A stretch of DNA of 11,296 bases from IMG/VR virus record IMGVR_UViG_2534681736_000004; one strand, written 5' to 3'. Below the pieces are notes generated by a model. It searched no databases and was not told the origin of the DNA. It saw only the letters and a program-made list of their open reading frames with translations. Made by a program: the position numbers and the translations under genes. Source of the DNA: a virus (Duplodnaviria > Heunggongvirae > Uroviricota > Caudoviricetes). Of this stretch, positions 8,005 to 11,111 are shown in pieces; within the stretch, counting starts at the first letter, position 1; the number at the start of each line of letters is the position of its first letter.

Positions 8005-9500
8005 TATGCAGACTCCTCTGAATACTGAAGACGGAACTGATTAACCACGGCAAAGACACGCAGCTGGTTAACATAGTCAGGCGGGAACAGCGTGTTCAGG
8101 CGGTTCGGATCGCTGGCATCACGCTCCACAACCAGGTACTGCTTAAACAGTTCGTAGTTTTCCACGATCCCCGCACGCTCAAGCTGACGGTAGGTTGCCA
8201 GCAGTTCCCCTTTGATCACCGCCGGGGTGACAATCGCCTGACCGGGACCAAAGCGGGTACCGTCACTGGCAAGCTTGTGACGCCCGTACTTACTGGTAAT
8301 GACGGATTTCAGTTTGCGCAGTACATACGCGCTGGTATGCAGCGTCTCACTGTCGAGGTAACTGTTATCCGCAACCCCGTAAGCGTTTTTCCTGTACGTG
8401 GTGACATCACGCTGAATGCGTAGTACCCCGCTTTCGACATACGCCGTTGCCACGCCATGAGACAGCAGGGTCTGTTGTTCGGTCATCGTGAACCGTTTCC
8501 CCTTCGGCGCAGGCAGCATACCCACCAGCTCACCGGTCTGCGTGGGACGTGCCGGATCGTTGCGGATAAACACCGCTGCGCGGGCGGTACGGCTTGCCGC
8601 CAGCTCGTCGGCAGGCGTCTGGGTCTCTTTTTCGTACCCCGCCAGGGTAATGTGCTGCTGGTTAAACTGGTCACCTGCGGTCACCAGTTCTGACAGCGTG
8701 CCGATCTTTGCCGTATACACATGACCATACAGCTGACGCGCATAGCTCCAGCGACCGCTGGTATCGTTCATCTCGGTCACCAGCGTGTTAACGGAGGCCG
8801 TGTCGTTGAACGGCAGGCCGATATAATCAAACGGCTCATCCGCCATTGCAGCCACCGCGCCGGTGAGAACCGGAGCACCCGTTCCGGCGGTACCCGTCGC
8901 CACGGCAATCTGTACGCCCGCTGGCAGCACTTCGCCCCCACCAAAGCCGTAGTAATTGAGGCTGACAGGAATTTCATTCCCACAAAGCCCCTTATGACGC
9001 GCGGTCAGTGTGACCACGCCTGCCAAAGATGAAGCCGTAAACGGCAGGGTCGGAACGGCATTGATGGCATCCTGGATACTGCTGGCAATCATCGTGACGT
9101 TATCGCCGTTAGTCACCGGTGCCTGCACGCGGGTACGTCCTACATACACATTCACCGTGCCGGTTTCGGTTGCCGCCCCGGTCACCGTCAGCGTAACTGT
9201 TGCCGCCGCACCTGTGGATTCAGGAACGGCAATCACATACAGCTCGCCAAACGGGTCAGTCTGGCGATAAGCCTCGACCATACGCGCCAGCTGACTTCCC
9301 GCACCACAAATCTGGCGTGCATAGTCTGCCGACGACATCAGTACCAGACTGTTGGCAACAATCTCTGCACCGTTATTGGCATGACCAATCAGCAGCGATG
9401 CTCCGCTGTCCTGTGCAGTATTCGCCGCCTGGTTATCCATTTCCGCATAAAACAACGGAACCAGCGTATTCGACGGAATGGTGTTAAAGCTTATCGTCAT
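8004..9500 (-). CDS. Contractile tail sheath protein (Mu gpL-like)
   Basis: 498 aa ORF, ATG at 9500-9498 with a GGTG ribosome-binding site about 8 nt upstream. It is the largest gene immediately before the tube, chaperone and tape measure genes; size matches Mu L (about 495 aa). Confidence 0.8.
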   Translation of the reverse strand: MTISFNTIPSNTLVPLFYAEMDNQAANTAQDSGASLLIGHANNGAEIVANSLVLMSSADYARQICGAGSQLARMVEAYRQTDPFGELYVIAVPESTGAAATVTLTVTGAATETGTVNVYVGRTRVQAPVTNGDNVTMIASSIQDAINAVPTLPFTASSLAGVVTLTARHKGLCGNEIPVSLNYYGFGGGEVLPAGVQIAVATGTAGTGAPVLTGAVAAMADEPFDYIGLPFNDTASVNTLVTEMNDTSGRWSYARQLYGHVYTAKIGTLSELVTAGDQFNQQHITLAGYEKETQTPADELAASRTARAAVFIRNDPARPTQTGELVGMLPAPKGKRFTMTEQQTLLSHGVATAYVESGVLRIQRDVTTYRKNAYGVADNSYLDSETLHTSAYVLRKLKSVITSKYGRHKLASDGTRFGPGQAIVTPAVIKGELLATYRQLERAGIVENYELFKQYLVVERDASDPNRLNTLFPPDYVNQLRVFAVVNQFRLQYSEESA

Positions 9501-9654
9501 CGGTGTTCACCTTTTTATTCACGCGCCGGATATCACCCGCTGCTTCACGGCGCAGCCAGTAGTTGTTCTCGTCAACATTTCGCCCTTCGGCGGGCAAAAG
9601 GTCGCCGCGGGCAGGGTCAGGCACTGACCGCCCTTTAACAGGTTTGACAAACAT
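9484..9654 (-). CDS. Small conserved protein before the sheath gene (DUF2635-like, Mu gp38 position)
   Basis: Not in the ORF track (56 aa). Manual translation from ATG 9654-9652: MFVKPVKGRSVPDPARGDLLPAEGRNVDENNYWLRREAAGDIRRVNKKVNTDDDKL, stop TAA at 9486-9484. GAGGA sits 6 nt upstream, overlapping the stop of the preceding gene. Its 3' end overlaps the sheath start by 17 nt. Resembles the small family I recall directly upstream of sheath genes in Mu-like tail clusters. Confidence 0.5.
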   Translation of the reverse strand: MFVKPVKGRSVPDPARGDLLPAEGRNVDENNYWLRREAAGDIRRVNKKVNTDDDKL

Positions 9655-9662
9655 GAGGATCC

Positions 9663-10223
9663 TCAGGAAGGAAGGGTTATTTCGGTGTGATGTTCGATAT
9701 CGCCGTCAGGCCCGTTACCGGGCTCGAGATAATCAACATCAATCGCCAGCGTTTGCAGTTCATCCAGACTGTTCAGATCATCCTGCTGGCGGGTATCGTC
9801 TTCAGTCAGCTCGCTGATGACCGAAAAATCGAACTGATAAATCAGCTCATGACGATTCAGATCCAGCAGCGTGCCGCCGTCATAGGTAATCGGGTTACCG
9901 CACGCTTCCGGGTTCCAGCCCAGCAAGGCCTTAAAGAGCATCTGCCGGACATCGTCCACCACATCATACGAAGCAAACTGACCGAGCTCATCACGCCCGT
10001 TACTCAGTATGACAACCACGGAGAAGCCCTCTTTCAGCTCCTGCCAGTAGTCGGTCTGGCTTTTGTTTTCTCCCGGAGAGTCATCACCCGGTACCACATA
10101 CGCCGCCGGGAGTCTCAGCTTTCCGACCTCCGGCAGATTTTTGAACTGTGCCGCGCCTGCCACCCGGTTTTCAAAATACGGGCAGCGGGCACGCAGCGCA
10201 GCAATAACAGGCGTCAGTTTCAT
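9663..10223 (-). CDS. Mu gp37-like (K region) neck / tail terminator-type protein
   Basis: 186 aa acidic ORF, ATG at 10223-10221 in an ATGA overlap with the upstream gene. Placement two genes before the sheath suggests a tail terminator or neck role. Assignment is by synteny only. Confidence 0.5.
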   Translation of the reverse strand: MKLTPVIAALRARCPYFENRVAGAAQFKNLPEVGKLRLPAAYVVPGDDSPGENKSQTDYWQELKEGFSVVVILSNGRDELGQFASYDVVDDVRQMLFKALLGWNPEACGNPITYDGGTLLDLNRHELIYQFDFSVISELTEDDTRQQDDLNSLDELQTLAIDVDYLEPGNGPDGDIEHHTEITLPS

Positions 10224-10726
10224 CTGCGTCGTCGCTCAGGCTTCAGTGATTTACGTAATTCTCGCGCCAGAAAATAGCGTGTCCAGCTGCGGTTCTTTTC
10301 AAGCGTTTCCACCATAAAGTTATTACGTGGAGCCAGCCGCCAGCCGCTGCCACCGGATGCACCACGATGATGACTACGACGACGTTTTGCTCCTCCCCGG
10401 ACACCAAAAAACAGAAACGCCGGATAGAAGTCACCAGAGATCATCCGGTTCCCCTTCCCGTTGCGCTGGTTAGGGGCAATGCGTGTCATAAAACCGGCTC
10501 GCTTTTTACTGGCTCTCGGCACCATGTAACCAATCGAACGAGCCAGGCGTCCGGTCTGATAACCGGGGTTTTCACCCGGTGCCGACCGCGCACGGCGCAT
10601 CACCAGCCGACGGGCATCACGCATATGACGCTGCCCAATCGTGACAAACGCCCGCCGGACACGGGCGCGGTTAAAGCGCATCTCGGCGGGCTGCTGAACA
10701 TCAACGTGAAAAAAGGGAGTCGCCAT
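10220..10726 (-). CDS. Basic virion morphogenesis / tail completion-type protein (Mu gp36 region; possibly P2 gpS-like)
   Basis: 168 aa Arg/Lys-rich ORF, ATG at 10726-10724 with GGAGG about 6 nt upstream. Overlaps the end of the preceding gene by 26 nt. Function is inferred from position and composition. Confidence 0.45.
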   Translation of the reverse strand: MATPFFHVDVQQPAEMRFNRARVRRAFVTIGQRHMRDARRLVMRRARSAPGENPGYQTGRLARSIGYMVPRASKKRAGFMTRIAPNQRNGKGNRMISGDFYPAFLFFGVRGGAKRRRSHHRGASGGSGWRLAPRNNFMVETLEKNRSWTRYFLARELRKSLKPERRRR

Positions 10727-11111
10727 TGCTGCCTCCGTGACTCTGCGTAAATTCGCCCAGTTCCGTACACTCCAGCAGCAGAAAGCGCCGCGCCCCGTTC
10801 AGATCGCGCTGACGTTTCACCCGGTACACACTGTCATCACAGACCACCTCATAATCAGCAGTGATCCCGCGGCGGTAGCGAATGGTGATGTAATGGGTGA
10901 TGGCGTCCCCGGTCTGCGCGGTTTCCTGCCAGGTGGTGGCACTGGTCTGGATAACCTTCGCCCATGCCCGGAACGCAACCGGGTATTGAGGCTCCACGCC
11001 AAAGTTATCCGCGGGCATATCCACCCGCTGGCGGATCAGGACGCGTTTATTCAGTTCGCCGGGGTCCGGCAGTATGTAGGTTGCGCTGGTCTGCGCCTGA
11101 CGAATTTTCAT
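10701..11111 (-). CDS. Head-tail joining / neck-type protein (Mu gp35-gp36 region homolog)
   Basis: 136 aa ORF, ATG at 11111-11109. I see no clear Shine-Dalgarno upstream (ttggttgctccttatcgccttataccactATG). Assignment is by position upstream of the tail genes only. Confidence 0.4.
   Translation of the reverse strand: MKIRQAQTSATYILPDPGELNKRVLIRQRVDMPADNFGVEPQYPVAFRAWAKVIQTSATTWQETAQTGDAITHYITIRYRRGITADYEVVCDDSVYRVKRQRDLNGARRFLLLECTELGEFTQSHGGSNGDSLFSR

Follow-up and report, generated by a model that had tools for sequence, protein, structure and literature searches.

Between the tail terminator and tail sheath genes of the virus record IMGVR_UViG_2534681736_000004 (Caudoviricetes), 162 nucleotides (nt) run from the terminator stop codon (TGA 9665-9663) to the sheath start codon (ATG 9500-9498). 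Is this interval a mere spacer, or does it hold a gene, and if so, what might the product do? We addressed the question in the 11,296-nt stretch of DNA that carries both genes (the window). The interval is occupied by a small open reading frame (ORF) on the minus strand, at 9484-9654, which is almost certainly a real tail-module gene of the DUF2635 / Mu gp38 family. The gene is already known from RefSeq, Pfam and PHROGs, as a member of a family without assigned function.

Identity and conservation of the small gene

The product of the ORF is MFVKPVKGRSVPDPARGDLLPAEGRNVDENNYWLRREAAGDIRRVNKKVNTDDDKL. The gene, its parts and the translation signals around it are the following.

9484-9654, minus strand: small gene of the DUF2635 / Mu gp38 family, 56 codons from an ATG start, followed by a TAA stop (supported by Pfam, PHROG, RefSeq and dN/dS, the ratio of nonsynonymous to synonymous substitution rates)
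9660-9664, minus strand: GAGGA Shine-Dalgarno sequence of the small gene, read from the sequence, 5 nt before the ATG and overlapping the terminator TGA
9514-9654, minus strand: codons 1-47, predicted conserved globular core (AlphaFold2 predicted local distance difference test, pLDDT, and invariant residues)
9487-9513, minus strand: codons 48-56, variable charged C-terminal tail, predicted to be disordered (pLDDT below 50 for residues 49-56)
9508-9513, minus strand: AAGGTG Shine-Dalgarno sequence of the sheath gene, read from the sequence, inside the small gene and 7 nt before the sheath ATG

An earlier note on this DNA, made from the letters alone, had described an ATG-initiated ORF of 56 codons with a ribosome-binding site and a 17-nt overlap with the sheath gene, and every descriptive statement in it was correct. 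The 17 nt (9484-9500) belong to the end of the small gene and to the start of the sheath gene in different frames. The length of the ORF is no proof of coding, given that 92 ORFs of at least 40 amino acids are found in the window, many of them spurious. The ORF is raised above chance by homology, purifying selection and fixed synteny.

Homology was evident in two family collections. The product matched Pfam family DUF2635 (PF10948) with 60.9 bits against a cutoff of 26.6 (E = 9.8e-17, profile positions 1-45 of 46), and PHROG 208 (phrog_208) with E = 3.6e-26. NCBIfam gave no match, the PADLOC defence models gave no family at E <= 1, and a sequence search of the PDB gave no matches even at E <= 10. 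All 56 of 56 residues are identical in orf10 of Shigella phage SfV and its relatives (SfI, SfII, SfIV and Escherichia coli prophage copies, WP_000497751.1), and the genetic context is identical as well. Identity is 85% to the copy of Salmonella ST64B and 42% to Mu gp38 (Mup38, AAF01116.1; also D108 and SfMu). Mu gp38, with 67 residues, belongs to the same Pfam and PHROG family, is encoded in the same slot between terminator (Mu K/gp37) and sheath (Mu L/gp39), and shares the core PxxGRxVxDP...LPxxG...YWxRRxxxGD. It differs by its lower identity, a longer C-terminal tail and a 4-nt ATGA overlap with the sheath gene. The Mu terminator, moreover, belongs to PF08873 rather than to PF23840 as here, and the head modules of the two phages differ.

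A family profile search of 1.84 billion representatives (E <= 0.001) yielded 2381 DUF2635 clusters at 50% identity. The 80 loci of an initial scan of viral contigs were all 100% identical in protein. For synteny we used a sample of 70 loci with one genome per species, from a genome scan with a narrower alignment. The loci came from Enterobacterales, gamma-, beta- and alphaproteobacteria, Dethiosulfatarculus, and metagenome-assembled genomes of Myxococcales, Scalindua and Methylomirabilota. In all 70 an intact DUF2635 ORF of 51-99 amino acids was present, so that neither the lack of homologs nor the broken frame that the earlier note had named as grounds for abandoning the gene was found. A sheath homolog lay directly downstream in 69 of them (the 70th contig ends there), and in most loci where a terminator homolog was detectable, it ended 3-20 nt upstream of DUF2635.

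Selection acted at the protein level, with a dN/dS of the small gene of 0.10-0.19 against relatives at dS 0.6-1.1, and with entropies of 0.92, 0.88 and 1.61 at the three codon positions. Across large evolutionary distances, the aligned part of the small protein surpassed the sheath in conservation in 46 of 71 loci; against the terminator, it did so in 36 of 48. Together with the Pfam and PHROG matches, the low dN/dS bears out the earlier proposal that the ORF is genuinely protein-coding.

Two ORFs lie antisense to the small gene, at 9381-9638 (plus strand, 85 amino acids) and 9478-9627 (plus strand, 49 amino acids). Because related loci have comparable antisense open stretches (median 101 amino acids within a window of about 470 nt), these two most likely result from base composition rather than being genes.

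The earlier note had called the gene unlisted, owing to the size cutoff of the track available to it, and had added that small genes of this kind are often missed. RefSeq lists exactly this coding sequence (CDS) as WP_000497751.1, "DUF2635 domain-containing protein". The region is present in 1070 of 5426 complete E. coli genomes, and a DUF2635 CDS was annotated in 40 of 40 E. coli records sampled evenly down a ranking of 1078. The remark about missed genes nonetheless applies to the records of SfIV (KC814930/NC_022749) and phiP27 (AJ298298/NC_003356), in which tblastn revealed an intact DUF2635 ORF that carries no CDS annotation. In bacterial genomes, on the other hand, the gene is consistently called by PGAP. 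In the literature we found no paper on DUF2635 and nothing functional on Mu gp38. The gene call itself changes nothing, as RefSeq, Pfam and PHROGs already include the gene. What matters is that the small protein ranks among the most conserved ones of contractile tails of the Mu/SfV type and of the tailocins that descend from them, and that the only high-resolution structure of such a phage does not show it. With its role known, the parts list of a "minimal" contractile tail would be complete, which is relevant to the engineering of tailocins and Mu-like particles.

Modelling with AlphaFold2 on an alignment of 39 sequences gave a confident small alpha/beta domain. Block means of pLDDT were 91-95 for residues 1-40 and 75 for residues 41-50, and the values of residues 49-56 fell below 50. 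The longer secondary-structure elements are predicted to be a strand (2-5), a helix that bears the YWxRR motif (31-39) and a second strand (42-45), with shorter strands between them. M1, P5, D13, P14, G17, L20, P21, G24, R25, V27, W33, R35 and R36 were invariant in the alignment, and Y32 was at least 90% conserved. The protein of the window has all invariant columns of the core motif (P5, GR, DP, LP, GR, YWxRR, GD). The charged character and the conserved-looking YW-RR motif that had been noted from the sequence were thus both confirmed: the 56 residues include 12 K/R and 10 D/E, and the motif forms the conserved center of the family. Among relatives, the C-terminal tail measures 6-49 residues and is rich in A, K, P and E. 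According to the model, about 45 residues form a compact domain, which is followed by a short, variable, charged tail that is predicted to be disordered.

The junction with the sheath gene

The DNA of codons 48-56 doubles as ribosome-binding site and start codon of the sheath gene, and the part that overlaps the sheath start encodes the variable C-terminal tail. The earlier note had taken the overlap to imply coupling or occlusion and had raised the question of its conservation in relatives. An overlap of 17 nt is not conserved. Across the 69 loci with a sheath homolog, it was found in only 6, and the remaining junctions were overlaps of 11 nt (6 loci), 4 nt (21) or 1 nt (12), directly abutting genes (1), or gaps of 1-10 nt (13), 11-45 nt (8) and more than 45 nt (2, with a maximum of 113 nt). 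The junction probably reflects ordinary tight packing of a late operon with translational coupling. Occlusion of the sheath start has no support: the predicted RNA fold of 9450-9600 (minus strand) was no better than that of shuffled sequence (z = -0.73). Nor was any promoter, terminator or Rfam family matched in the interval between the terminator and sheath genes. Of the two consequences proposed for the overlap, coupling is therefore the probable one, and occlusion is not borne out.

Coupling could in principle also be all that the ORF provides, if it were an upstream ORF translated to deliver ribosomes to the sheath start, with a peptide that has no function. The 17-nt overlap, the position of the sheath ribosome-binding site inside the ORF and the overlaps of 1-17 nt in 45 of 69 loci would fit this idea. 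It is, however, effectively excluded by the conservation data. Purifying selection is strong, certain residues do not vary between phyla, the fold is predicted with confidence, and the gene is kept where gaps of 11-113 nt separate it from the sheath gene. In addition, the domain is reused in long proteins (see below), and no occluding RNA structure was seen. A role in nucleic-acid binding or regulation, for example as an RNA binder that resembles the N-domain of ribosomal protein L9 in fold and would modulate the translation of late genes, strikes us as very improbable, though not quite to the same degree.

Tail association, fibre fusions and a possible role in assembly

The block of terminator, DUF2635 and sheath genes occurs with heads of different types, namely an HK97-type head here, the Mu head in Mu, and a lambda-type head in a further locus (L170). 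It also occurs in the tailocin of Pseudomonas fluorescens Q8r1-96, which, unlike the present locus, is a headless and integrase-less bacteriocin cluster. There, Orf9 (terminator, PF23840) and Orf10 (DUF2635) are followed by the sheath. Orf10 and its Pf-5 counterpart in prophage 01, PFL_1215, are about 54-60% identical to the small protein. Because the gene is kept in headless tailocin clusters, its role is independent of heads and of head-tail joining. By sequence comparison, it serves the tail module and not the head. The particles in the tailocin proteomics paper PMC4684702 are P2-like, not SfV-like.

The family extends beyond the temperate Mu/SfV-like phages. Agrobacterium phage 7-7-1, which differs in being a virulent, flagellotropic 69-kb myovirus, has a 68-residue ORF, gp125 (L165 4733-4939), directly before its sheath gene gp126. 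Although gp125 is below the Pfam threshold, it matched phrog_208 (E = 5.7e-7), and it was the best match to the predicted fold in BFVD (probability 1.00, template modelling score 0.72). Judged from these similarities, gp125 is a remote DUF2635/phrog_208 homolog.

The domain is not confined to short proteins. Among the 150 best family representatives it always started within about the first 22 residues, and in the 8 of 150 that were longer than 120 residues it was N-terminal without exception. In the longest case described here (P0240, 756 residues), DUF2635 covers residues 1-49, and phrog_4201, a tail fibre family, matched residues 295-754 (E = 1.7e-79), together with a weak match to a SASA esterase. 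The gene (L154 6001-8271) follows gp45-gp48 baseplate genes and a fibre gene. A 402-residue protein (P0161), for which no longer contig turned up, combines DUF2635 with fn3 and is located among connector genes, and the gene that follows P0208 is laminin-G-like. At 137 residues, P0203 is a lengthened form in the usual slot before the sheath gene. Other long forms bear fn3 or fibre-like C-terminal parts. We also considered whether the long proteins were fusions with the sheath, and rejected this, as none of them has sheath domains.

The contig that encodes the 756-residue protein comes from an alphaproteobacterial-type Mu-like phage and carries a second DUF2635 gene, which encodes 58 residues and abuts the sheath gene (L161 3084-3260). 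Contig IMGVR_UViG_2585427600_000002 is an example that has both the short form and the fibre fusion.

The N-termini of fibre proteins are generally the ends that attach to the virion, as in T4 gp34 and gp12, P2 gpH, Mu gp49 and T7 gp17. Since DUF2635 heads fibre proteins, whose N-termini normally attach to the particle, the fusions suggest by analogy that the domain may be a docking module. Its occurrence at the head of some tail-fibre proteins thus offers a concrete and testable lead on function.

Whether the short form is a part of the finished particle is a separate matter. The position of the gene between terminator and sheath would be expected for a stable collar subunit, that is, a dedicated sheath terminator capping the last sheath ring. 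GenBank AF083977 indeed labels Mu_38 as "putative sheath terminator protein", which suggests capping comparable to that by tail or sheath terminators (Mu gp37, T4 gp15, P2 gpS), whose gene position is adjacent. The authors of the cryo-electron microscopy study of Mu count gp38 among the "probably structural proteins" (PMC11915804), and both the high conservation and the fibre fusions would fit a fixed site on the tail. The structural data of the same study argue against such a subunit. In these 2025 maps of the extended and contracted states (3.3-3.8 A), gp35, gp38 and gp41 were not resolved, all density of neck, tail and baseplate was assigned, and the terminator-tail region showed no gp38 density at 3.5 A (PMC11915804). 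Tube and sheath are both capped by hexameric gp37 alone, which is joined to the last sheath ring by its C-terminal beta-hairpin (PMC11915804). Because gp37 alone does the capping and gp38 is not resolved, the label "putative sheath terminator" is not supported.

Two further observations point in the same direction. Terminators are hexamer formers of 150-270 amino acids that are visible in virions, in contrast to Mu gp38, and the small protein has no sequence or fold similarity to the terminator families (PF23840, PF08873, T4 gp15-like). Tandem mass spectrometry of phage 7-7-1 virions identified 24 proteins, including gp124, gp126, gp127 and a 3.2-kDa protein, with gp125 absent (PMC3517404). 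The neighbor gp124 was itself detected through a single peptide (PMC3517404), and gp125 may for this reason still be present at low copy number. On balance, a stable collar subunit appears quite unlikely.

A non-virion sheath chaperone would agree better with the absence of the protein from the Mu maps and the 7-7-1 proteome, and also with its retention in tailocins. Such a chaperone would hold sheath monomers (for example by their exchange arms), prevent premature formation of polysheath, and be released on polymerization. The gene is always located directly upstream of the sheath gene, overlapping it or within 10 nt of it in 59 of 69 loci, which would suit matched synthesis, and the divergence of the small protein tracks that of the sheath (r = 0.93). 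The correlated divergence is, however, explicable by linkage alone, and the domain also heads tail-fibre proteins whose genes are far from that of the sheath, which fits poorly with a dedicated sheath chaperone. Other phages with contractile tails (T4, P2) are not known to require a sheath chaperone. We therefore regard a pure chaperone role as possible, but rather doubtful.

Our own, tentative preference is for a small docking or assembly factor that acts at the sheath/terminator end of the tail and is bound there transiently or at low occupancy. Identity, selection, synteny and domain architecture are observations: the gene is the SfV-type ortholog of Mu gp38, encoded between terminator and sheath within one late operon, with its own ribosome-binding site and with little or no space to either neighbor. 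From these we infer the mechanism in the following steps. The conserved domain may be a protein-protein docking module that recognizes the sheath/terminator end. The short form would then most likely be an accessory or assembly factor during sheath polymerization and capping. It would be bound transiently or at low occupancy rather than as an ordered, stoichiometric virion subunit, because gp38 is not resolved in the Mu maps and gp125 is absent from the 7-7-1 proteome. In the long form, the same module would start a tail-fibre protein and constitute the end by which the fibre is attached to the tail.

A bolder version of the docking idea, which we consider somewhat unlikely as it stands, is that DUF2635 is a portable tail anchor domain. 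On its own it would occupy or prepare a site at the sheath/terminator end of Mu- and SfV-type tails, and as part of a fusion it would hang accessory fibres (esterase-, fn3- or lectin-like) there. If this were true, these tails would have a fibre-attachment point that is unrecognized in current structures, and a function would be assigned to a family with more than 2000 clusters.

Stand-alone "adaptor" proteins that anchor fibres exist in podoviruses of the T7/SP6/K1-5 type. The analogy with DUF2635 is that a short protein comprises hardly more than the domain that elsewhere heads fibres, and that short and long forms occur in one phage. Fold and family are unrelated, though, the tail is contractile here, and the attachment of DUF2635 to the particle is putative.

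Neighboring genes of the window

All long ORFs of the window are on the minus strand and form a head-completion and contractile-tail operon. In the order of transcription, the genes that surround the small gene are the following.

10701-11111, minus strand: head completion gene
10220-10726, minus strand: Neck1/tail completion gene
9663-10223, minus strand: tail terminator gene, 186 amino acids, the usual upstream neighbor of the small gene (Pfam PF23840, E = 7.9e-26)
8004-9500, minus strand: tail sheath gene, 498 amino acids, the invariable downstream neighbor (Pfam PF04984, PF17482 and PF17481; phrog_165)
7648-8004, minus strand: tube gene
7379-7648, minus strand: tail assembly chaperone gene (PF10109)
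5402-7237, minus strand: tape measure gene

Genes for DNA circulation and the baseplate come after the tape measure gene. The small protein does not belong to the tail assembly chaperones (G/GT-type, PF10109), and the chaperone of the window is the separate gene at 7379-7648.

The unannotated gap of 141 nt between the chaperone and tape measure genes is spanned by an ORF in the -1 frame (7224-7412, minus strand, 62 amino acids), which overlaps the 3' end of the chaperone gene and stops a few nt past the tape-measure ATG. A slippery heptamer T_TTT_TTC (GGT TTT TTC) at about 7397-7391 gives access to this frame, and the ORF is probably a programmed frameshift product of the G/GT type. RefSeq contains only the short form of the chaperone.

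At about 3777/3778, 16 nt are missing from the window that are present in the prophage of E. coli 7784, to which it is otherwise nearly identical. The loss splits a gene for a Mu gp44/gpP-like "phage baseplate assembly protein" (gene region 2953-4016, minus strand), which is intact at 1080 nt in 7784, into products of 89 amino acids (3747-4016) and 245 amino acids (2953-3690). Since the baseplate assembly gene is split, the tail module of this genome is, as judged from the sequence, probably defective. Among the 1095 E. coli records that matched, only about 7-9 share the 16-nt deletion allele, for example O157:H7 strain FRIK944.
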